DNA from: Candidatus Woesearchaeota archaeon
GTDB taxonomy: Archaea; Nanobdellota; Nanobdellia; Pacearchaeales; GW2011-AR1
Direction of reading: 5' to 3'
DNA: 37,612 bases
Assembly (NCBI GenBank): GCA_964519005.1
Contig: CAZFLO010000003.1
Location: 1 to 37,612, forward strand
The position numbers and the translations under genes were made by a program. This document shows positions 8,497 to 20,404 of this stretch, one piece after another. Under the pieces are notes generated by a model that had not been told where the DNA came from, did no database searches, and saw only the letters and a list, made by a program, of their open reading frames with translations. Position 1 is the stretch's first letter, and each line of letters starts with the position of its first letter.

Positions 8497-9081
8497 TTAC
8501 CAATTTTTCCTGCCAGGATACACATAATTTTCTTCCAAATTCACTGCTCCATTTTGACTAATTTCATCACTAAAATTAATCAGATGATCTGTCCTAATAT
8601 TTTTGATTTTTTTAGGATTTATTTTATTAGTAACAACAAACTCTGGAACAGAATATTCTCCCACATAATCTTCTAATTTTTTAAAACTCTTAGAATATTC
8701 TTGTTTAAATTTTTCTCTTTCAACATCTTTCAAATCCTCAACTTCAAAATCTTTTTCTAAATTTAAATATTTTCCCGGATTCAAAAACAGGTCAGCATTT
8801 GCAACATAAATCTGATCTTTCTCAGATAATCCTACCCTCAAAATGGAAACCTCTTGGGTACCCACTCCCCTATTCGAAGCATGAACTAGGATTGAAGCTA
8901 TGTCTCTCCCCCATAAACGAGAATCATGAAAAAAATAATTAAAAGATTCTGAATTATTGTAAATAGTCTTTGCTCCTTCAACCAAATCTCTTGAAATTCC
9001 TTTATTAATTAACCCAGAATTAAAAATAGATTGAAGATTACTCTTAGGAGTAAATTGATATAAAAATTTTAAATTTTTCAT
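8497..9081 (-). CDS. Hypothetical protein with weak ADP-ribosyltransferase/Tpt1-C-like N-terminal pattern
   Basis: 194-aa ORF. The ATG overlaps the upstream stop (ATGA). FLYQFTPKSNLQSIFNSGL and LVHAS...VSILRV resemble LYHxT..NLxSIxxxGL / VHLS of ART-fold proteins, but with Q in place of H. Confidence 0.5.
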   Translation of the reverse strand: MKNLKFLYQFTPKSNLQSIFNSGLINKGISRDLVEGAKTIYNNSESFNYFFHDSRLWGRDIASILVHASNRGVGTQEVSILRVGLSEKDQIYVANADLFLNPGKYLNLEKDFEVEDLKDVEREKFKQEYSKSFKKLEDYVGEYSVPEFVVTNKINPKKIKNIRTDHLINFSDEISQNGAVNLEENYVYPGRKNW

Positions 9082-9533
9082 TCTTCAATCTCCAAATCTT
9101 TATACATTAAATTAGCAATATTTCCCTTCCCCCCGTAAGAAACAATCATATTGCTCCCTGTATCAAAAACATCCAGCCCAACTCCACCCAGATCATAATA
9201 TTTTTCATTTCTTTGTTTTTGTATTAATTTTTTCTGTATATCAAAACCTTCTCCACAATCTTCAAACTGAAACACATATCCAAAATACCCTGCCCCTATC
9301 TTTAAATGATATGGCAATTCTGGATCTTTTTTATTTCCATGCATTCCTGCATTAAGTTCAAGTTCTCCAAAAGGGTATTCTAAATTTTTACCTACATCTC
9401 CATCACACAAATAATGGGGAAATTCTTCAATAGAATTCATAAATTTCACAAGATTAAGTTTATACATCTTATCCCGATTACAATATTCAAACATTTCAGG
9501 ATTCCCATTAGGACTAATCACTTTATTGAACAA
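9078..9533 (-). CDS. Hypothetical protein
   Basis: 151-aa ORF starting at a TTG. The first ATG is at 9494. Translationally coupled to 8497-9081. No domain recognised. Confidence 0.45.
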   Translation of the reverse strand: MFNKVISPNGNPEMFEYCNRDKMYKLNLVKFMNSIEEFPHYLCDGDVGKNLEYPFGELELNAGMHGNKKDPELPYHLKIGAGYFGYVFQFEDCGEGFDIQKKLIQKQRNEKYYDLGGVGLDVFDTGSNMIVSYGGKGNIANLMYKDLEIEE

Positions 9534-9588: not shown

Positions 9589-10206
9589 TCATTTTAAATC
9601 ATGAACTCCCTTAAATTTCCAATCATCTGAGTCAATAAAAACAAATTCGTTTCTACTTTGTGACCAAATAAAATTTCCTGGCTTAATATCATTATCCTGA
9701 TAAACCCCAATCAAACAGGCTTCCATATCTTTTCTTTTCTTTAAATAAATCTGAAGATCATTATTTAGATTTGTTCCCTGATATCCACCTAAACCAACAG
9801 TATTTTTCAAATCTTCCATCACAATTGCAGGATTTAATTTTCCACTTTCATTATCTTTAACTAAATAAAACCCATTTAATTTGGGTATTGTCCACCCCAT
9901 CGCTTCCCCTACTTTAAAATTTACAAAACCCTTTCTAGCAAAAGAAAAAGCCTCAGTTAAATCTCTCAATGATTTAAACCTATTTACATACACCTTCGCA
10001 CCATCTCCCCCACCAATGGAATAAAAATGACCATCTTTTCCAGCTGTCAAATAATTTTCTTTATCAAAATCAAACTCTCCTTCAACTTTCAAACCATCAA
10101 TTCGTTTAGGAGTAGCCTTATCAATTTCACGATAAAGCCTACTAACATTAACTCCCTCTTTCACAAAATCTGTTTTTAATCTGGGATTTTTATCTAAACT
10201 TATCAT
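9589..10206 (-). CDS. Minimal protein-kinase-like protein (paralog A)
   Basis: 205 aa. Hinge-like IVMEDL, catalytic-loop-like DNDIKPGNFIW (D-x-K-x-x-N) and DFG-like FIDSDD, with only ~12 aa after it. TATA-like ctataaaaa is 25 nt upstream of the ATG. Confidence 0.55.
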   Translation of the reverse strand: MISLDKNPRLKTDFVKEGVNVSRLYREIDKATPKRIDGLKVEGEFDFDKENYLTAGKDGHFYSIGGGDGAKVYVNRFKSLRDLTEAFSFARKGFVNFKVGEAMGWTIPKLNGFYLVKDNESGKLNPAIVMEDLKNTVGLGGYQGTNLNNDLQIYLKKRKDMEACLIGVYQDNDIKPGNFIWSQSRNEFVFIDSDDWKFKGVHDLK

Positions 10207-10355
10207 GTTACTTTAAGGCAAAAACACTATAAAAACCTTTCTTTTTGTCACCACTCCCTAGAAACAACAAAGAAAACCCCCAATTACTAAAATATTAAAA
10301 ACCCCCACCTTTTCTTCTTTTATTATGAAAAAACACTAAAAAATTAACAAACAAA

Positions 10356-10871
10356 ATGGTAAATAAAAAAACAATAAAAAAAATAAGAGATAATTTGGGA
10401 TTAACAGAATATCACAAAATAGGCCCAGATCAAAAAAGAGAAGTTTATTACGGAAAATCAAATTTGATAAAAATGGTTAGAACAAATGGAATAAATCATA
10501 CTAATTCAAACTCACAAACTCCCCTCCTTGGTACAACTAGTTTAGGACCCTGCATAGCAATAATAGGATATAATCCAAAAACAAAAACCGCATTTATCTC
10601 TCACAATGTTGAACACAATCCTCCCGAAAAAATAAATAACCCTTTAATTGAAAAAATAGGAAAAAATAATCTGGAAATATATTTAGTAGGGAACAATATC
10701 AGAAAAAACCACGAGGAAAAATTAATTGAATATCTAAAATCAGAACTAACTAATTCAAAAATTGTTTACAAAGATACAGAGAGAATTCCAGATCCAAAAG
10801 GATTAGGAAAATCAGTTATTCTAGATACTAGAAATGGAAAAATTTATTCTCACAGTGGAATAATGGAATAA
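10356..10871 (+). CDS. CheD-like Cys-His hydrolase/deamidase-fold protein
   Basis: 171 aa. TTSLGPCIAIIGYNPKTKTAFISH parallels the CheD motif LGLGSCVAV...P..K.G.MAH. ILDTRNGKIY resembles the CheD C-terminal strand. Confidence 0.4.
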   Translation: MVNKKTIKKIRDNLGLTEYHKIGPDQKREVYYGKSNLIKMVRTNGINHTNSNSQTPLLGTTSLGPCIAIIGYNPKTKTAFISHNVEHNPPEKINNPLIEKIGKNNLEIYLVGNNIRKNHEEKLIEYLKSELTNSKIVYKDTERIPDPKGLGKSVILDTRNGKIYSHSGIME

Positions 10872-10919
10872 TGGTTTTGATCCCAAAACTCATAAAAACC
10901 CTCCACTCCTTTTTTCCAT

Positions 10920-11951
10920 ATGACAAAAAAACAAAGAAAAATCCCAGATCCAAAACCTCTCTTTGTTGAAAGAATAAATAAAATTCTAACAGACAAAAAA
11001 GACAATCAAGCATATTGGGAAATATTAAAAAAAACCCCAGTTGATTCAATAAGATGTAATACATTAAAAATTTCCCCCGAGAATCTAATTAAAAAATTAA
11101 ATTCTCTTGGATGGATAATTTCCCAACCTTGGGAAAAAAATCCAGAAATAATGATTATTGAAGGGAAAAAACCGACAAATCATCCAAAAGAAATAATTAA
11201 TGAAAAAGATTTAGCAAAATTATTCCCGGGAGAAATAGGGAGAACAATGGAACATTTACTAGGTTATTATTATGTTCAAGAACTCTCTTCAATGCTTCCA
11301 ATTATTGCTCTCACCCCAAATGAAGAAGATGAAGTTCTAGATCTTTGTGCTGCTCCAGGAAGCAAGACAACTCAAGCAGCTGCAAAAATGAATAATAAAG
11401 GGAACATAATTGCAAATGAAATTTCCTTAGAAAGAATGAGAATATTGGCCTCAAACCTAGAAAGATGTGGAGTCACAAATACGGTAATTACCAGAAAAGA
11501 AGGCAGGGCCCTTTGTTTAAACTTGGAAACAGAAAAAATTAAATTTGATAAAATTTATGTCGATGCACCCTGCTCTGGAGAAGGAACCTTAAGAAGCACC
11601 CCAAAAACATATCTAATGTGGAATATTAAAACAATAAAATATCTCTCTAAATTACAAAAACAATTGTTTCGACAAGCATTCAATCAACTAAAAATTGGAG
11701 GAGAAATGATATATTCTACTTGCACCCATGCTCCTGAAGAAAACGAAGAAATTGTTGACGCTATGCTAAAAGAATTTGAAAATAAAATTGAAATCATTAA
11801 ACCTGAACTTCCAATTAATACTCGAGAAGGAATGACAGAATGGGAAGGAAAAAAATATGATGAACGTGTTAAACTTGCTCAGAGAATTTATCCACAAGAC
11901 AATAACACAGAAGGTTTTTTTGTTTCAAAATTTAGAAGGGTTAAAGAATGA
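10920..11951 (+). CDS. NOL1/NOP2/Sun-family RNA m5C methyltransferase
   Basis: 343 aa. Motif I DLCAAPGSKT, motif IV DAPCSGEG, motif VI YSTCT. TATA-like ctcataaaaac is 26 nt upstream. Confidence 0.88.
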   Translation: MTKKQRKIPDPKPLFVERINKILTDKKDNQAYWEILKKTPVDSIRCNTLKISPENLIKKLNSLGWIISQPWEKNPEIMIIEGKKPTNHPKEIINEKDLAKLFPGEIGRTMEHLLGYYYVQELSSMLPIIALTPNEEDEVLDLCAAPGSKTTQAAAKMNNKGNIIANEISLERMRILASNLERCGVTNTVITRKEGRALCLNLETEKIKFDKIYVDAPCSGEGTLRSTPKTYLMWNIKTIKYLSKLQKQLFRQAFNQLKIGGEMIYSTCTHAPEENEEIVDAMLKEFENKIEIIKPELPINTREGMTEWEGKKYDERVKLAQRIYPQDNNTEGFFVSKFRRVKE

Positions 11952-12433
11952 AATACAATCCAAACTCCCTAATAATTTTATCAGAAAAAGAAAAGACAAG
12001 AATAATAAATAAACTAAATTCACAATTTGGAATCACAGAAATTCCCGGATCATTAATAAAAAAGGGAAAAGAAAAAATTTTCTTATACACTGGAAATTTA
12101 GGAAAAGAGGAATTGTTAAAATTAGACAAAATAACTTTTGTTGAAAAAGCCGGAGTTTATTTGGCAAAAGAAGAAGGCGAAAATATTCGGCTTTCAATTG
12201 AAGGTTCCCAAATATTAAAAGATCAAATGACAAAAAATGTTATTGAATTAACAGAAGAACAATCTCAAACTTGGATGATGGGACATGAAGTAGAAATAAA
12301 ATCTGGCCTAAAAGGATTAGTCGCAATGAAATATGGGCAAGACATGCTCGGAACTGGAAAAGCTAGTGAAGAAAAAATTACAAATTTTATTCCAAAAAGC
12401 AGAAGATTAAAAGACAAAACTATTTTAGAATAA
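11948..12433 (+). CDS. nip7: NIP7-like pre-PUA/PUA protein (UPF0113)
   Basis: 161 aa. ATGA overlap with the Nop2-like gene. C-terminal GLKGLVAMKYGQDMLGTGKA fits a PUA-type pattern. Size and layout match archaeal Nip7. Confidence 0.5.
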   Translation: MKYNPNSLIILSEKEKTRIINKLNSQFGITEIPGSLIKKGKEKIFLYTGNLGKEELLKLDKITFVEKAGVYLAKEEGENIRLSIEGSQILKDQMTKNVIELTEEQSQTWMMGHEVEIKSGLKGLVAMKYGQDMLGTGKASEEKITNFIPKSRRLKDKTILE

Positions 12434-12486
12434 ATTTCTTTTCCCATGCCCCCTCCAGATTTTGAATTATTTTCGAGGAAAAATCT

Positions 12487-12533
12487 GAGATTTCATTTAG
12501 CCGCGTACGACCGTACGTAAGAAATTAAATCTC
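12487..12533. other. Intergenic nested hairpin between convergent genes
   Basis: gagatttcattt (12487-12498) pairs with aaattaaatctc (12522-12533) at 11 of 12 positions. The inner cgtacg..cgtacg forms a second stem. Confidence 0.5.
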
Positions 12534-12559
12534 TGCATTTTAACCGAAAAGAAGCAAAA

Positions 12560-12661
12560 TCATTCTTCTTCTTCAACACACCCTTCACACAACCCACTAT
12601 CGTCTTCTGAATTCTCATCATACCAGTACCCACATTTTTTACATTTATCAAATCCCGCCAT
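12560..12661 (-). CDS. 33-aa zinc-ribbon mini-protein (not in ORF track)
   Basis: Hand translation gives MAGFDKCKKCGYWYDENSEDDSGLCEGCVEEEE-stop. CxxC...CxxC pattern and an acidic tail. Confidence 0.4.
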   Translation of the reverse strand: MAGFDKCKKCGYWYDENSEDDSGLCEGCVEEEE

Positions 12662-12744
12662 TTTTACTCCAAAATTATACTAAAAAACCAGGATTCTGTA
12701 ATTTAAATAATTAACTTTATAACCAACAATACTTTTTTAAAAAA

Positions 12745-13629
12745 ATGGATAAGGAAAAAATTATCAAAGCAGGAGAAATTGCAAAAGAAATAAAATTATG
12801 GATTAAACCTCAGATAAAAAAAGGAATGTTACTTTTAGAAATAGCCGAATTAATTGAAAATAAAATTTATGAAATGGGTGGAGAACCAGCATTCCCAGTA
12901 AATCTTTCAATTAATGAAATAGCTGCACACTATACTCCCTCGATGAACGATGAAACAATAGCAGAAGGATTATTAAAAGTTGATTTTGGTGCTGAAATAG
13001 GGGGATGGATTTCTGATACAGCATTTACAATTGATCTAGAAGGAACAGAATTAAACAAAAAATTAATCGAAGCTTCAAAAACTGCATTGACAAATATAGA
13101 AGAAAACATATCTTCAAAAATAACTCTGGGAGACATGGGAAAAATAGTTGAAAATACAATAAACTCTTTTGGATTCAACCCCATAGCAAATCTTTCTGGG
13201 CATTCACTAGAACAATATGATTTGCATGCAGGAGTCACAATTCCAAATGTGGCAAACAATTCTGATTATACTTTAGGAGAAGGCCATTATGCTGTAGAAC
13301 CTTTTGCAACAAACGGAAATGGAAAAGTTCATGACGGAAAAAAAGGAAATATTTATGCCCTACTAGGAGAACAAACAGTTCGAAGTCCAGCTGCAAGAGA
13401 AGTTCTAAATTTCATAAGAGAAAATTACGGATACCTCCCATTTGCGGGAAGATGGATAATCAAAGAATTCCAAACAAAAGGAATCATCGGACTTCGTCAA
13501 TTAGAACACGAAGGAATTCTCCACCATTATCCAGTATTAACCGAAGAGAAAGGAAAACTAGTTTCCCAAGCAGAAAATACTTTTCTAGTCGAAAAAGAAA
13601 AAGTTATAATTACAACTAAGGAAGATTAA
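12745..13629 (+). CDS. map: Methionine aminopeptidase, type 2
   Basis: 294 aa. AFPVNLSINEIAAHYTP, DFGAEIGGWISDTAFT, SGHSLEQYDLHAG, AVEPFATNG and AENTFLV metal-ligand blocks. TATA-like box is 26 nt upstream. Confidence 0.92.
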   Translation: MDKEKIIKAGEIAKEIKLWIKPQIKKGMLLLEIAELIENKIYEMGGEPAFPVNLSINEIAAHYTPSMNDETIAEGLLKVDFGAEIGGWISDTAFTIDLEGTELNKKLIEASKTALTNIEENISSKITLGDMGKIVENTINSFGFNPIANLSGHSLEQYDLHAGVTIPNVANNSDYTLGEGHYAVEPFATNGNGKVHDGKKGNIYALLGEQTVRSPAAREVLNFIRENYGYLPFAGRWIIKEFQTKGIIGLRQLEHEGILHHYPVLTEEKGKLVSQAENTFLVEKEKVIITTKED

Positions 13630-14129
13630 TTGATTCCATTATCAACTTTCAATTTTCCAGCATCACACATACGGGTTCTTCCATCTTTCCACATAGCATT
13701 TTTATTATTACGATCTTGCATAATAAATCCTATGTCTTTTGCTGTAGATTTTTGTTCATCATATTGTCGATTAGCTTCTTTCAAAACTTCTCCTTCCAAA
13801 TCTTCTAAACAAGTGTCCCCCAAATCTTCCATAACTAAACCGGGAAAATACGCTCCACTCTCTTTCCCTTTTATCGCATAAATTCCTTTTACTTCTGGAA
13901 AAGAAAGATCCATTTTATTTGCAAATGTTTGTACCTTCGCTTCCCTGTGAAGTGTAACATTTATTCTCTCATTATTAAGTAAGTTACCCCCACCATATTT
14001 ATCATATGGAATTTTCACAACATTTCCATCATCCAATCTATAAATTTTTCCAAAATATCCACTATCATTGGATTCGGATTCTTTGATCTCATACTTTCTT
14101 TCAAGTTGTTCTAAAGGTTTAAATCTCAT
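13626..14129 (-). CDS. Minimal protein-kinase-like protein (paralog B)
   Basis: The track ORF starts at a TTG (14144). The ATG is at 14129, with a TATA-like box 24 nt upstream. G-loop/Lys-like SGYFGKIYRLDDGNVVKI, LVMEDL, DRNNKNAMW and CDAG. Aligns with 9589-10206 (FPEVKGIYAIKGKESG..PGLVMEDL vs IPKLNGFYLVKDNESG..PAIVMEDL). Confidence 0.55.
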   Translation of the reverse strand: MRFKPLEQLERKYEIKESESNDSGYFGKIYRLDDGNVVKIPYDKYGGGNLLNNERINVTLHREAKVQTFANKMDLSFPEVKGIYAIKGKESGAYFPGLVMEDLGDTCLEDLEGEVLKEANRQYDEQKSTAKDIGFIMQDRNNKNAMWKDGRTRMCDAGKLKVDNGIN

Positions 14130-14241
14130 ATAAAATAGAGTCAAAACTATTATTTAAACCTTTCCATTTGTCACTACTGGACAATAACACAAGAATCAAA
14201 AAAAGAAATCATTGGGTTTCATCAATTACAACTAAAGAAGA

Positions 14242-14853
14242 TTAAAATTTCTTTACAAAAATTCCTCTTTTCTCATCAAACTCGAATCCCTGTCTCTTAG
14301 CGGGAATATCATATTGCCTTTTTTTAGTATTTTGAAAATTCACCCTAACAGGATCCCAGTAATTTCTTTCATAGGGTAAAACCCACAATTCAGAAATATC
14401 CAATTCCTTAAAATCCTCATACAAAACATTCAAAAATAAATCCGAATATCGTATCTTTCTTAATGCAACTTTTTCATCTTTAAAACCTTGAATCTGTTTT
14501 ACTAACATAGAATTGGGCCTAGGTTCAAAACTACAAATTGCAATTGGATGTATTCCTTCCTTTAGCACATACGCATAAGATGAATCAGAAAATCTATTTT
14601 CATTACCTGGAAGAAATCCTTCCCCAAAATGTCTCCCAATAGAAAAATCAGAAACATCAGCCTTTTTTAATTTAGCAAAATTTGAATAATCAATTCCTAA
14701 ATCAACTTCTTCCTTAACAAAACCATTTAATTTTTCAGATAATTTTTTAGAATCTTTTCTTAAAATAATCTTCACATCTTCTTCCACCAATTGAACACGA
14801 TTTCCATACCAGAAACAAGTCTCCACGGGATAATCCAAATCATACTCTGCCAT
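14242..14853 (-). CDS. Hypothetical protein (possibly GNAT-like, very uncertain)
   Basis: 203-aa ORF with a TATA-like box 27 nt upstream. IAICSFEP...MLVKQIQGFKDEK only vaguely recalls the GNAT beta4-alpha3 region. Confidence 0.5.
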   Translation of the reverse strand: MAEYDLDYPVETCFWYGNRVQLVEEDVKIILRKDSKKLSEKLNGFVKEEVDLGIDYSNFAKLKKADVSDFSIGRHFGEGFLPGNENRFSDSSYAYVLKEGIHPIAICSFEPRPNSMLVKQIQGFKDEKVALRKIRYSDLFLNVLYEDFKELDISELWVLPYERNYWDPVRVNFQNTKKRQYDIPAKRQGFEFDEKRGIFVKKF

Positions 14854-14907: not shown

Positions 14908-17331
14908 TTATTTCTTCTCAATCTTCTTCTTCAACTTTTTCTCTCTAGCTTCAACCTCGCTAACCTTATCCTCAACCTTCTCCACATCTTTCTTAGGGAT
15001 CATTTTAGCAATATCCTCCATCGAAGGCATTCCAGACATTGAACCAGCCCTAGCCTTAACTTCATCATCTTTCTGCTTCTTCAAATATTCAAAAGCTTCT
15101 TCAAAATCTTTTTTAGTAATTCTAATCTTAGTCAAATCTTCTTCCTTATAATTTCTCTTAATAGAATTAATCCCTGCATTACGACAAACAGCCTCGATAT
15201 CAGCCCCAGTCCAATTTTCACTTTCCCTAGTCATCTTAACTAAATCAACATCTTTCTCCAAAGGCATTTTTGCAGTATGAACTTTGAAAATCTCTCCACG
15301 AGTTTCAAGATCAGGATTAAATAATTCTACATGAGAGTCAATTCTTCCAGGTCGCAAAATCGCAGGATCAATTAAATCTTTTCTGTTTGTAGCGGCAATA
15401 ATCATAACATTCTCTAAATCTTCAACTCCATCAAGTTCAGTCAACATCTGATTAATAACTTTTTCCGAAGAATCATTCCCCATTCCAGATCCACGAGATT
15501 TTGAAATAGAATCAAATTCGTCAAAGAAAATAATTGAAGGAGAAACTTGCTTGGCTTTCTTAAAAATTTCACGAACATGTTTTTCACTTTCTCCAACCCA
15601 TTTGGAAATTAATTCCGGTCCCTTAACTGAAATAAAATTAGCGTTAGATTCTGTTGCAACAGCCTTAGCAAGCAAAGTTTTCCCAGTTCCAGGAGGCCCA
15701 AATAATAAAACCCCCTTGGAGGGTTTGATTCCAGCAGCAACATACAAATCAGGGCGTAGCAAAGGCAATTCAACTAATTCACGCAATTTATCTTTAGCAT
15801 CTTGAAGCCCACCAATATCAGTCCATTTTATATTGGGTTTCTTAATTAAAACTTCACGCATTGCAGAAGGCTCAACCATTTTCATAGCATAAACAAAATC
15901 ATCTCTCTTAACAACTAAATTAGAAAGTACTTTTTCCCTTTTTTCCATAATCTCTTTTTCTTCTATGCTCAAAACTTCTCCTTCTTTCAAATTCTTGTCT
16001 TCAATACCCTGATTTTCCATGTCTTCAGCAAGACTCATGATATCTGCATAAAAAGGTTTAACCGAATGCAAAGCTGCTTCCTTCCCTAAAACTTCTAAAT
16101 CCGCGCCAGTAAAACCAATTGTCTTATTTGAAAATTCAGTTAAAATTGCTTCCTTATCTTCAAGAGGCATATTCCTCGTATGGATTTCCAAAATCTTCCG
16201 TCTACCTTCTTCCGTTGGAGGATTAATTCGGAGTTCACGATCAAATCTCCCGGGTCTCCTCAAAGCCTCGTCCAAGTCATCTGGTCGATTTGTCGCAGCC
16301 ATAACAACAACTTGTCCCCGACTCTTCAATCCATCCATCAAAGTCAATAATTGTGCAACAACTCTCTTCTCAGCCTGGTCACTACTTTCTCCACGCTTAG
16401 GAGCAATTGCATCAATCTCATCAATAAAAACAATAGCCGGAGCATTCTTTTGAGCTTCCTCAAATTTACCCCTTAAATTTTCTTCACTCCCCCCGTGATA
16501 TTTACTCATAATTTCTGGACCAGCAATAGAAATAAATTTTGCATCAGTTTCAGTTGCAACAGCCTTAGCAAGCAAAGTTTTCCCAGTTCCAGGGGGCCCA
16601 GTCAACAAAATTCCCTTTGGAGCACCAATTCCTAATTTCTCAAAAATTTTAGGATGCTTCATAGGAAACTCAACCATCTCACGAATCTTCGCTATTTCTT
16701 CGTCAAGCCCACCAACATCTTCATAATGAACATTCGCTCCACTCCCTTCTCCAACTGAATCTGAAATTGTAATTTTTGTTTTATCATTAACAATTCCAGT
16801 CTCTAAAGTTTTAGGCAAAATTTTTGAAATAACACAAACAATTTTCTCACCATTACTTAACGGCACACTTGTTCTCTGTCCAACAGAAACCGGAGCCCCA
16901 CTAAAAGCACTTCGAAAAATATGTTCATTCCGAGGATCTTTCAAACTAGGAATTACATTTTGTTTCATTTCTTCTTCGGGAACATTTTCATTTTCCAAAA
17001 CAGAAATTTCAATAGACCTAAGAGATTTAACTTCTACTTTGTTTTGAACCACAGTAACATTTTCTCCAAGGCTCATTCCTAAAACATGACGAGTTTCACC
17101 ATCAATTCCTATCTTCCCATCAAAAATATCATTCCCCCGAATTGCCCTAAAAATCATCTTTTTTGAATTTCCAACTTGAACCAAAGTTCCAGAAACAATT
17201 CCTAAATCTTCCATATCATTATTAGAAATAGAAACTAAATTTTTTCCTCGATATTCTTGCTTTGCTTCAACTACTTCTAAAATTAATTTTTTACCTCGAA
17301 GAGGTTCTCGTGACTTTTGGTTATCTTTCAT
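14908..17331 (-). CDS. cdc48: Cdc48/VAT-type AAA+ ATPase (two AAA domains), paralog 1
   Basis: 807 aa. Cdc48-N-like start, two [17 protein letters not shown] Walker A boxes, two DEID/DEFD Walker B boxes, pore loops SKYHGGSE and SKWVGESE. Lys-rich C-terminal tail. ATGA overlap with the upstream sHSP gene. Confidence 0.92.
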   Translation of the reverse strand: MKDNQKSREPLRGKKLILEVVEAKQEYRGKNLVSISNNDMEDLGIVSGTLVQVGNSKKMIFRAIRGNDIFDGKIGIDGETRHVLGMSLGENVTVVQNKVEVKSLRSIEISVLENENVPEEEMKQNVIPSLKDPRNEHIFRSAFSGAPVSVGQRTSVPLSNGEKIVCVISKILPKTLETGIVNDKTKITISDSVGEGSGANVHYEDVGGLDEEIAKIREMVEFPMKHPKIFEKLGIGAPKGILLTGPPGTGKTLLAKAVATETDAKFISIAGPEIMSKYHGGSEENLRGKFEEAQKNAPAIVFIDEIDAIAPKRGESSDQAEKRVVAQLLTLMDGLKSRGQVVVMAATNRPDDLDEALRRPGRFDRELRINPPTEEGRRKILEIHTRNMPLEDKEAILTEFSNKTIGFTGADLEVLGKEAALHSVKPFYADIMSLAEDMENQGIEDKNLKEGEVLSIEEKEIMEKREKVLSNLVVKRDDFVYAMKMVEPSAMREVLIKKPNIKWTDIGGLQDAKDKLRELVELPLLRPDLYVAAGIKPSKGVLLFGPPGTGKTLLAKAVATESNANFISVKGPELISKWVGESEKHVREIFKKAKQVSPSIIFFDEFDSISKSRGSGMGNDSSEKVINQMLTELDGVEDLENVMIIAATNRKDLIDPAILRPGRIDSHVELFNPDLETRGEIFKVHTAKMPLEKDVDLVKMTRESENWTGADIEAVCRNAGINSIKRNYKEEDLTKIRITKKDFEEAFEYLKKQKDDEVKARAGSMSGMPSMEDIAKMIPKKDVEKVEDKVSEVEAREKKLKKKIEKK

Positions 17332-17783
17332 TTTTTAAACGAAACCTCCAAAATACCATTTCTAAAATTTGACTCATAACCCTTTGGCCTAATTTCTTTA
17401 CTCAAAGGATAACTTCCAAGATGCTCTTTTCCATCTTTAACTTCCAAAACTTTCTTTCCCGTAGCAACTCTTTCGCCATAATCATTTTCAATAATTTCAT
17501 CTTTAATTTCCGCAAAAACATTTTCTTTTCCAGAAAAATCAAATACAAAATAAATTCTTTTCTTTGTTGAAATTTTATCCAAAAGAACTTTTCCAAAAAC
17601 ATCTCTTTGCATTCTCTTTGTTGTTTTTCTTTTTCCATCCGGACCCAAAGTCGTATATTCAACAGAACTGTTTTCCCCAGCTAAACGCTTAAACAAATCA
17701 TCTATTCCCCCACCAAAAAAATCATCTCCAAACATTTTAACCGAAGTAACTTCCCCCTTTATTCGAAATTGCTGTTTTAACAT
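17328..17783 (-). CDS. hsp20: Small heat-shock protein (Hsp20/alpha-crystallin-like)
   Basis: C-terminal [12 protein letters not shown] and [12 protein letters not shown] fit the alpha-crystallin domain pattern. An alternative ATG at 17735 would remove the 47-nt overlap with the upstream cdc48. Confidence 0.5.
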
Positions 17784-20064
17784 TATTCAAAAATTGCTCT
17801 TCGATTTTTTCGTAAGTCACAAGGGATTGCTTCGTCACACTAGGTTGAACTTTTTTCTTAGCTTTTTCAAAATGATTTTTATTCACAATATCTGCATCCA
17901 AATTTTCCCTTAACGCAATCATTCCTGCTTCTCTAGTCAAAGCTTCCAAATCAGCCCCGGTAAAACCATCAGTTTCTTTTGCTAATTGATTTAATTTGAC
18001 ATCTTTTGCCAAAGGCATTCCTTTCGTATGAATCTCTAAAATCATTTTTCTTCCAGCTTCTTCTGGAGCATTCACAAGTAAAATTTTATCAAATCTCCCG
18101 GGACGAAGTAAAGCAGTATCAAGCATATCAGGTCGGTTCGTCGCTGCAATAACTAAAACATCTTTCATTTCTTCAAGGCCATCCATCTCTGACAACATTT
18201 GATTTAATACTCTCTCAGTAACTTTATTTTGATCCATACCTCGTCTTCCAGCAATCGAATCTAATTCATCAAAGAAAATAATACAAGGAGAAACTTGTCT
18301 TGCTTTTTCAAAAATCTTTCTAACTCCCTCTTCACTTTTTCCAACCCACATAGATAACAAAGAAGGTCCCTTAATTTGAATAAAATTAGCTTCACTTTCT
18401 TTTGCAACCGCTTTCGCTAAAAGAGTTTTCCCGGTTCCAGGAGGACCATACAATAAAATTCCTCGACTAGGACGAATCCCAATTCTCTTAAAACTTTCAG
18501 GATATTTCATTGGCCATTCAACAGCTTCTTTCAAATTTTGTTTAATCTTATCAAGTCCACCAACGCTATCCCAATCCACATTAGGAGTTTCAACTAAAAC
18601 TTCACGCATTGCACTAGGCCTAACAATCTTTAATGAATCCACAAAATCATCTTGTTTAATAATTAATTTTTCCAAAACCTCTTGAGGAATATTTTCTTCA
18701 TCAAGTTTAATTTTCCCGAGATTCTTTCGCAAAACATTCATCGCTGCTTCCTTAGTTAAAGATTCCAAATCAGCTCCAACAAATCCGTGAGTCAAAGAAG
18801 AAATTTTATCTAAATCAACATTTTTGTGAAAAGGCATTCCTCTTGAATGAATTTTCAAAACTTGAAGTCTTCCAACTTTATCTGGAACACCAATTTCAAT
18901 TTCACGATCAAATCTCCCAGGTCTACGCAAAGCCGGATCCAAAGAATTAACTCTGTTAGTAGCACCAATAACAATAACTTTCCCTCGAGAATTCAAGCCA
19001 TCCATCATGGTCAGTAACTGGGACACAACTCTTCTTTCAACCTCTCCATGTGTCTCTTCCCTCTTAGGTGCAATTGCATCAATCTCATCAATAAAAATAA
19101 TCGAAGGAGCATTCTTCTCAGCTTCATCAAAAATATTTCTAATTTTCTTTTCACTTTCCCCATAAAATTTACTCATAATTTCAGGACCATTCAATAAAAT
19201 AAAATGCGCATCAGATTCTGTGGCAACTGCTTTAGCTAAAAGTGTTTTCCCCGTTCCTGGAGGTCCGTGTAACAAAACTCCTTTTGGAGGTGTAACCCCT
19301 AATCTCTGAAAAATTTCCGGGTGCTTCATTGGAATCTCAACCATTTCCCGAATCTTTTTTATTTCCTCGTTTAATCCACCAATATCTTCATAATTAATTG
19401 TTGGAATTTTTCCTTCAATTGCATCAACTGCTTTCGAATTCAAAACAACTTCTGTGTTTTCCGTTACAATAACTGGACAACTAGGATTTGTAGAAACAAC
19501 ACTGAATTTTATTTGTGCAACAGCTCCTCCAAGTTGTCCACCAAGTCCAGGAATGTTTCCCAAAATATCTCCCAAATTACCAAAAATATCATTCAAATCT
19601 CCCATCTCTTCACTCATCAATTCTTTTCTTTTTTGAACTCCTCCCAAAACCAAAACATCTCCTTTAATTATTATTCTTCCAAGTAAACCTTTTCTTAAAC
19701 TCGTTGGATCTCCTTGAACCATTACTCCTTTTTGAGCTGGCGCAATCATAATTTTTTTTGCTTCTTTAACTTCAGCTTTAGAAACCAAAACTTCATCCCC
19801 AATTCCAACTCCAGCATTCCTACGCAAAAGTCCATCGATTCTAATTATTCCATCTCCAATATCTGCAGGATAAGCTCTATCAGCAATAGCCACAGTTTGC
19901 TTATTCGCTTTAATCAAAATTGCATCTCCTCGCTTAATTCCTAACTCACTCATTAATTCTAAATCAAGTCGAGCAATTCCTTTATACACATCATCTTGAA
20001 GTGCCTCACTGACCTTAAGAATAATTTCTCCTTTCTCATTTACTTTATTTTCTTCACTTTTCAT
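17737..20064 (-). CDS. cdc48: Cdc48/VAT-type AAA+ ATPase (two AAA domains), paralog 2
   Basis: The track ORF starts at a TTG (20076). The ATG at 20064 is preceded by GGAG. Double-psi-barrel-like N-domain (GIARLD...GDAILI...IRIDG), two [15 protein letters not shown] boxes, pore loops SKFYGESE and SMWVGKSE. Ends ...GGSYFG. Confidence 0.92.
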
Positions 20065-20404
20065 CTTCTTCTCCAAAATTTAAACTCAGTCTCCCAGCCT
20101 CTTCAAAACAAAGCCGAACCATATCATCCATTAATTTTTCCTTTTCATGCATAAACGAAACAATCTCTTTTGGAATCGACACAGCATAACTGTTACCAAC
20201 AATCCGCATTTTTACTTTAAATTCTTTTTGATTCAATTCCTTGAATCTATTATATTCTTCGACATCTTTCGGATGAACTATTTTGTCATGACCCAAAGGA
20301 CAAATCAAAGCTCTCATCTGAAAACCATTTTTATTGACAACCGCCTTCTGCAAAGGCTTGCTACAAGTCTTGCATAAAATCGTATGATCAAATATATCTG
20401 TCAT
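20054..20404 (-). CDS. Zinc-ribbon plus AbrB/SpoVT-like swapped-hairpin domain protein
   Basis: 116 aa. N-terminal CKTC...CPLGH. C-terminal [18 protein letters not shown] is typical of AbrB/MazE-type domains. Overlaps the cdc48 start. Confidence 0.5.

Follow-up and report, generated by a model that had tools for sequence, protein, structure and literature searches.

Two diverged genes of a Woesearchaeon encode predicted kinase-fold domains that end shortly after the DFG aspartate

How much of the protein kinase fold is needed for ATP binding and catalysis is the question raised by two small genes, here called mini-kinase A and mini-kinase B, on contig CAZFLO010000003.1 of a Candidatus Woesearchaeota archaeon (assembly GCA_964519005.1). 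The window analyzed, 37,612 nucleotides (nt) long, spans this 37.6-kb contig completely. The assembly comprises 0.92 Mb, is 74% complete and has a GC content of about 30%; genes of the window such as PolB, two Cdc48 genes, MetAP, FEN1 and an RsmB-like methyltransferase gene are archaeal. In protein kinases, the helix αF anchors the catalytic and regulatory spines, and the helices of the C-lobe form the platform for the substrate. A conserved natural family that carries all catalytic residues and ends shortly after the Asp of the DFG (Asp-Phe-Gly) motif would be a direct test of which parts of the fold are required. The analysis described here, which relies on sequence comparison and structure prediction, indicates that A and B almost certainly adopt a protein-kinase-like (PKL) fold in which the catalytic set is intact and the C-lobe truncated. 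They are probably catalytically competent ATP-binding phosphotransferases or ATPases which would recognise their substrate via a partner.

Mini-kinase A (9589–10206, minus strand) is an open reading frame (ORF) of 205 amino acids (aa) and consists of an N-terminal extension of about 35 residues forming one helix, the kinase N-lobe, the helix αE, the catalytic loop, the segment IDSD and a tail of 13 residues. Mini-kinase B (13626–14129, minus strand; 167 aa from the ATG) begins with the motif FKPLExLEKKY, which is followed by β1-β3, αC, β4-β5, the hinge VMEDL, a short αD, αE, the catalytic loop, β7-β8, the segment CDAG and β9, where the protein ends. An alternative upstream start of B, a TTG at 14144, would extend the protein to 172 aa; since this TTG falls within the promoter block described below, the ATG at 14129 is likely the correct start. 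BLASTP aligned a single block of 35 residues between A and B (43% identity, E 2e-7), MAFFT produced a full-length alignment with about 21% identity, and one family hidden Markov model (HMM) scored both proteins strongly (1.3e-53 and 1e-40, the latter being the value for A). By these comparisons A and B are real but old, diverged paralogues, which is in accordance with a preliminary description of the locus that had presented them as two aligning paralogous ORFs. A search of the 0.92-Mb, 74%-complete assembly for more paralogues, as suggested there, detected none; the one related protein it returned was a canonical Bud32 of 214 aa encoded on a different contig.

The assignment to the kinase fold is carried by structure models and profile comparisons. 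AlphaFold2 (AF2) models generated with the family alignment as input reached a predicted local distance difference test score (pLDDT) of 95.2 and a predicted template modelling score (pTM) of 0.89 for B, and of 90.2 and 0.86, respectively, for A. The modelled order of elements is β1-β3, αC, β4-β5, hinge, short αD, one long αE, β6, catalytic loop, β7-β8, DFG and β9, and both models contain the five-stranded N-lobe sheet with αC, the hinge and the core with αE that define a PKL fold. In Foldseek searches against the PDB the top matches were exclusively protein kinases (E ~1e-5, query-normalised template modelling (TM) score ~0.6), namely Rio2 (1zar), JAK1, MK2, Rio1 (1zp9, 3re4), RIOK1 and PRPK (6wqx) for B, and CK2, RIOK2 and HopBF1 (6pwd) for A; the same type of search against BFVD returned viral kinases. 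Compared with PDB sequences, the family profile matched a PknB-type kinase (4eqm/9ymt, E 5e-9), with profile positions 12–170 placed on kinase residues 11–165 in an alignment spanning β1 to just beyond the DFG motif, as well as CK2 (~1e-7) and a 226-aa Ser/Thr kinase chain. A profile-profile comparison (hhalign) of the family with the Bud32 of the same genome gave a probability of 96.5% over Bud32 residues 15–153 and left 61 Bud32 residues unmatched. A and B themselves had no meaningful match in Pfam, NCBIfam or PADLOC; among 67 individual family members, Pfam matches were obtained to APH (19/67), RIO1 (14/67), Kdo (6/67), TCAD9 (6/67) and Pkinase (5/67). Similarity to the PKL fold, on which the preliminary description had made its proposal depend, was therefore found by Foldseek, with the family profile and the Bud32 comparison in agreement.

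The same applies to the catalytic residues. In B, the motif residues are G24/G27, the β3 'VAIK' lysine K39 (14013–14015), the αC glutamate E63 (13941–13943), the catalytic loop D139-RNNK-N144 (D139-x4-N144; 13698–13715) and the DFG-equivalent, metal-binding D156 (13662–13664), after which 11 residues follow. The corresponding residues of A are G56/G59, the β3 lysine K71 (9994–9996), which stands in a nearly invariant alignment column, the catalytic loop D173-IKPG-N178 (9673–9690), which resembles the Ser/Thr motif D-[LI]-K-P-x-N of eukaryotic protein kinases (ePKs), and the DFG-equivalent D192 (9631–9633), whose 13 following residues include the family-conserved Trp196 (all features on the minus strand, codon coordinates checked). 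Across a family alignment of 67 sequences with a mean column identity of only about 18%, conservation amounts, in B numbering, to 0.91 for Gly24, 0.95 for Lys39, 0.88 for Glu63, 0.93 for Asp139, 1.00 for Asn144 and 0.99 for Asp156. Trp147 and a Trp four residues past the DFG Asp (D-x3-W) are conserved as well. In the B subfamily (10 sequences, 31–64% identity), K39, E63, D139, N144 and D156 are all invariant and the N-terminal FKPLExLEKKY motif is nearly so. The Gly, Lys, catalytic-loop and DFG-equivalent assignments made earlier from the letters alone hold, and the Lys, Asp, Asn and Asp, whose conservation among homologues had been proposed as a test, are retained in 93–100% of the 67 sequences.

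What sets both proteins apart is the region behind the DFG Asp. With 11 residues in B and 13 in A (family median 11, range 6–35), the tails are far shorter than the 61–69 residues counted in the same way for three canonical Bud32 proteins, including the one of the same genome with 69. The preliminary description had put the end about 12–15 residues after the DFG equivalent, which is slightly too high but correct in substance, and its statement that most of the C-lobe is absent is borne out by the AF2 models, which stop after β9, contain αE as the sole long C-lobe helix and have neither an activation segment nor αF-αI. The helical C-lobe core of the PKL superfamily (αF, usually αG-αI) is hence absent from A and B. 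The accompanying comparison was with minimal kinases such as Bud32 and RIO; known ones that come closer in size to A and B are HopBF1, OspG and SteC, which, however, appear to retain αF. All 65 clusters of the family are 124–236 aa long, and sequences from other taxonomic families (f20, f31, f32 and others) have the same YLIDFxxW ending with tails of 7–12 residues. For B, a continuation of the coding sequence is impossible because its stop codon overlaps the convergent MetAP gene. A truncation artefact or pseudogene was rejected on the grounds of this overlap and of the end point shared by the 65 clusters. In the helix αE (B residues 113–132), the hydrophobic positions 119, 123, 127, 130 and 133 line up in one stripe, the remaining positions being mostly charged (about 60–80%, range about 40–80%). 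This composition may be an adaptation to the exposure of a face that is normally covered by αF and αH, and would point to a minimal domain that has evolved as such and is not a broken one.

A split kinase receiving its C-lobe from a neighbouring gene was also considered and is not supported, as homologues of the 203-, 151- and 194-aa neighbours of A and B were absent from the vicinity of family members in 33 other loci, also when jackhmmer was used. The products of these neighbours (14242–14853, 9078–9533 and 8497–9081) had no PDB sequence match either. Two further observations concern protein length. One mini-kinase copy in the tandem arrays of relatives (see below) is 260 aa long, and the 67 residues that follow its DFG Asp do not resemble the Bud32 tail. 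In addition, several giant-virus protein-kinase entries in BFVD (Cedratvirus, ChoanoV1, NIOZ-UU159) are also just 160–186 aa long (target-normalised TM 0.53–0.59), so that short kinase-fold ORFs may be more widespread than the archaeal mini-kinase family.

In a collection of 5.8 billion proteins, A was a singleton and B had two homologues at 63% identity, whereas 65 clusters at E<1e-3 were obtained when 1.84 billion representatives were searched exhaustively with HMMER and a profile built from A and B. A search for the loci of relatives with B alone as query yielded nothing, and the B-subfamily alignment led to a relative carrying the same gene family, also a 'Candidatus Woesearchaeota archaeon'. 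When 401 genomes belonging to the taxonomic family of the archaeon were searched with a broad profile, about 44 contained clear members (E<1e-15), and a single genome had as many as six copies. A sample of 401 genomes drawn from across the phylum gave 25 genomes with matches at E≤1e-14, all from the same class and distributed over 13 families; at least two of these (G616, G049) are canonical Bud32 by tree and tail length, so that the true share is at most about 6%. Since the broad profile also detects canonical Bud32 (~1e-8 to 1e-15), these distribution figures are approximate. No description of the family was found in Pfam, NCBIfam, PADLOC or the searchable literature. It is an undescribed, lineage-restricted family of minimal PKL domains of Woesearchaeota-type DPANN archaea with a patchy distribution. 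The family tree has long branches and no simple correspondence between gene slots and clades, a pattern that fits fast evolution together with local duplication. Tandem duplicates are present in loci L026 and L045, and arrays of two or three mini-kinase genes occur in L023 (G142:C31, 7437–8219), L026 (G196:C1, 7039–8149) and L045 (G638:C3).

Taken together, a complete kinase N-lobe followed by the hinge, a short αD, a long amphipathic αE, the catalytic loop, β7-β8 and the DFG Asp, closed by a short β9 and a tail of 6–13 residues, would form the whole of a minimal domain. As the full set of ATP/Mg-binding and catalytic residues is under strong purifying selection, binding of ATP·Mg followed by chemistry at the γ-phosphate, that is, its hydrolysis or transfer, appears most likely, and the proteins would act as protein Ser/Thr kinases or as ATPases in the manner of Bud32 and RIO. 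Because the usual platform on the C-lobe is absent, recognition of the substrate would have to take place in trans, with specificity supplied by a partner, by the substrate itself or by self-association, in analogy to OspG, HopBF1 and the dimer of a SteC fragment. A may be the less active or a regulatory copy. The suggestion of the preliminary description that A and B represent a minimal ATP-binding or kinase module possibly in need of a partner thus finds support in the fold and the residue conservation. Catalytic activity as such is somewhat more likely than not.

A number of points weigh against activity of such a minimal domain. Both kinase spines are considered to be built upon the helix αF, and to our knowledge all characterised kinases retain the helical core from αF onward; an active fold without αF might not be stable, and the confidence of an AF2 model is no proof of stability. 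A itself lacks the αC Glu, having Lys92 in that column and E85 earlier in its αC, and the position of the DFG Asp is occupied by Asn in family member P0059 and by Gly in L029. In the gene neighbourhoods of the 34 loci compared, no candidate partner gene recurred next to the mini-kinases throughout the class. The most direct objection comes from SteC, of which constructs ending at residue 375 or 377, shortly past its proposed non-canonical DFG (D362-G-D), were inactive; activity required residues up to 429, including αF, and the αF region was needed for substrate binding (PMC13395416). The end point of these inactive constructs is almost where the mini-kinase family ends naturally.

These objections give some room to a reading of A and B as nucleotide-binding pseudokinases or regulatory modules that would serve as a switch or scaffold without phosphotransfer. 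Points in its favour are the inactivity of the analogous SteC truncation, the absence of a substrate-binding C-lobe from both models, the missing αC Glu of A and the variability, across the family, of the residues between the catalytic Asp and Asn, including position D+2, which is Lys in ePK Ser/Thr kinases. Pseudokinases, though, are typically missing one of three residues, the catalytic Asp, the Asn or the DFG Asp, and the conservation of precisely these residues at 93–100% across very divergent sequences is hard to explain without catalysis, for which reason we regard this reading as rather unlikely. Even less probable is a role as small-molecule kinases of the APH (aminoglycoside phosphotransferase) or choline kinase (ChoK) type that act on a metabolite or an antibiotic-like compound. 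APH is indeed the Pfam family matched by most members (best E 9.5e-9), and a patchy, multi-copy presence in variable regions is typical of accessory functions. APH and ChoK enzymes, however, bind their substrates with a helical C-terminal subdomain, which A and B lack. The APH matches of A and B themselves stay below the threshold, and the closest matches by structure and by profile are to protein kinases and RIO/Bud32. That A and B are functionless remnants of a decaying Bud32/RIO-type gene or gene-calling artefacts, as their shortness, lack of database annotation, rapid divergence and long branches might imply, is effectively refuted by the common end point, the conserved catalytic residues, the confident AF2 models, promoters conserved in relatives, an intact separate Bud32 in the same genome, and the absence of internal stops from the family ORFs of relatives (0 in total; flagged stops fall where the profile match passes the end of the ORF).

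Both genes have a putative regulatory element in common. A block of 28 nt, AGTRGTGACAAANNGAAAGGTTTWWATA, lies upstream of A as AGTGGTGACAAAAAGAAAGGTTTTTATA (10228–10255, minus strand) and upstream of B as AGTAGTGACAAATGGAAAGGTTTAAATA (14151–14178, minus strand), in both cases ending 21 nt before the ATG. The two copies are about 85% identical, and they are the only ones in the window, where none is expected by chance, as well as in the whole 0.92-Mb assembly. The score of the local alignment between the A and B upstream regions was reached by 1 of 500 shuffles. Since the coding sequences are only about 21% identical, the block is probably a selected cis-element through which A and B would be co-regulated. 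Its 3′ part can be read as an archaeal promoter resembling a transcription factor B recognition element and TATA box (BRE/TATA), preceded by a 12-nt upstream element, and the 21-nt spacing to the ATG as the start of a leaderless mRNA, so that each gene would have its own leaderless-type promoter, and for B this spacing favours the ATG at 14129 over the TTG at 14144; AGTRGTGACAAA within the block is a candidate for a factor-binding operator. In relatives, related blocks precede family genes in at least six loci (L019, L020, L021, L023, L027 and L030). A genome scan with a position weight matrix (PWM) derived from the block sites revealed no third copy, just much weaker sites. The best of these, with a score of 26 compared to 36–38 for A and B, is located at about position 1688 of another contig (G000:C13, minus strand), 21 nt upstream of a 252-aa ORF starting MTSVLAATAF..., which might have an Ntn-hydrolase- or proteasome-β-like N-terminus.

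With regard to gene neighbourhoods, the only recurrent pattern among the 34 loci is a position of the family gene directly, or one gene, after the Cdc48 gene of a cluster composed of an AbrB-like gene, Cdc48, an Hsp20-like gene and Cdc48, which was observed in 8 of the 34 loci. In the window, this co-directional cluster, assigned by Pfam and NCBIfam matches, is located upstream of B (14908–20404, minus strand) and separated from it by a non-conserved 203-aa gene (14242–14853). The genes found between Cdc48 and the mini-kinase (203 aa in the window, 219 aa and 86 aa in other loci) are mutually non-homologous. All eight loci belong to family f1 (genera g1, g19, g28 and g148), and in most of them the family gene is convergent with MetAP; in loci outside this pattern the neighbours are unrelated small ORFs. 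A functional coupling to the cluster of Cdc48 and small heat-shock protein genes was considered and found to be weakly founded, as the arrangement is confined to these loci of one taxonomic family and B has its own promoter; a specific link to Cdc48 and proteostasis therefore appears doubtful at best. The slot of A, between PolB and the RsmB-like gene, is common to one genome of the same genus (L021). A role as anti-phage defence genes was rejected, there being no PADLOC match.

The immediate neighbours provide several observations of their own. The gene products of 14242–14853 and 9078–9533 had been suggested as partners of the mini-kinases; this was not borne out, since neither is conserved beside family members elsewhere. 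The 151-aa protein encoded directly downstream of A (9078–9533, minus strand) has a weak match to HATPase_c_2 (SpoIIAB/RsbW-type GHKL Ser-kinase/ATPase, E 0.0018), with a plausible N-box (ELELNAGMHG), G1 (DCGEGFD) and G2 (GGVGLDVF) recognizable by eye, and it looks like a small GHKL/HATPase_c_2-type ATPase, unlike the helices of a kinase C-lobe. Divergent from A, a 171-aa ORF (10356–10871, plus strand) has a sub-threshold NCBIfam match to XopAK, a type III effector family (E 2.9e-5), and in locus L055 (G408) a homologue of 187 aa is encoded two genes away from the mini-kinase. The orphan ORFs 8497–9081 (minus strand, 194 aa) and 14242–14853 (minus strand, 203 aa), which adjoin the kinase genes, have no match in Pfam, NCBIfam, PADLOC or the PDB and no homologue in 33 related loci. 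It seems that fast-evolving genes accumulate in the intergenic slots next to mini-kinases.

The small genomes of DPANN archaea are rich in unannotated genes, and the mini-kinases add to these lineages an uncharacterised, lineage-specific component of signalling or ATPase type. With a size of about 165 aa, the domain would also lend itself as a minimal scaffold to structural studies and to protein engineering, and the promoter element common to both copies offers a handle on regulation. A more far-reaching, and at this point speculative, possibility is that the mini-kinases are the smallest natural active kinase-fold kinases or ATPases, either working without αF or being completed in their active form on a partner (Cdc48 or another protein). 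In the latter case, they would constitute a natural 'half-kinase' system, possibly used by the episymbiotic Woesearchaeon to modify its own proteins or those of its host.

Among known systems, Bud32/PRPK and RIO1/RIO2 are similar to the mini-kinases in being small, in lacking an activation loop, in their LIDF-type DFG region and in the order of catalytic motifs. Bud32 and RIO kinases act largely as ATPases within complexes, and an analogous model is plausible for the mini-kinases. The most obvious difference is the tail of 61–69 residues after the DFG Asp of Bud32, taken as C-lobe helices, in comparison to a median of 11 in the mini-kinases. Furthermore, A and B have no match at the thresholds of the Bud32/RIO Pfam families (RIO1, Kdo), other members ranging from sub-threshold to weak; their catalytic loop lacks the His of the Bud32/RIO HGD motif; and the N-terminal PLExLEKKY motif and the Trp of D-x3-W are features of their own. 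No Kae1-type neighbour stood out, given that no gene recurs beside family members across the class, unclustered neighbours being left without annotation. The genome additionally encodes the canonical stand-alone Bud32 of 214 aa (IIHGDLTTSNMIL...YLIDFGLGFF; G000:C19:152-796, minus strand), which passes the RIO1 and Kdo cut-offs and is not fused to Kae1 there.

OspG and HopBF1 also appear to keep αF, whereas the mini-kinase family ends before any αF and SteC needs it. In their architecture, these bacterial effectors, HopBF1 (6pwd), OspG/NleH and SteC, are nonetheless alike to the mini-kinases, being minimal kinase folds with depleted C-lobes (PMC9950578; PMC13395416). OspG is activated by the ubiquitin-charged E2 (E2~Ub), and HopBF1 binds and phosphorylates HSP90, with a stabilisation of HopBF1 by HSP90 having been suggested (PMC9950578); the SteC 202–375 fragment was crystallised as a dimer (PMC13395416). 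HopBF1 (176 residues) was a Foldseek match of A with a target-normalised TM of 0.56, no better than generic kinases. SteC 202–375 (8jbi, a 174-aa chain) was the best PDB sequence match of the profile built from A and B, but this match is marginal (E 0.014) and limited to the region of the Gly-loop and the Lys. As the effector kinases are secreted bacterial type III secretion system proteins acting on eukaryotic hosts, and the mini-kinases are archaeal, the resemblance does not amount to family membership.

The best profile matches to PDB sequences are found among ePKs (PknB type, CK2), and the DIKPGN of A fits the Ser/Thr signature of these enzymes. ePK domains, however, are about 250–300 aa long and possess an activation segment, an APE motif and αF-αI, none of which is present in A and B. 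APH and ChoK differ by the C-terminal subdomain that the mini-kinases lack; the His of the Brenner-type HxDxxxxN motif is not conserved, and the APH matches are weak. By sequence and predicted fold, the mini-kinases are thus placed among the atypical small PKLs (Bud32, RIO) and the ePKs; judged in this way, they are a new and architecturally extreme PKL family outside every curated family, of a PKL kind that is itself known.

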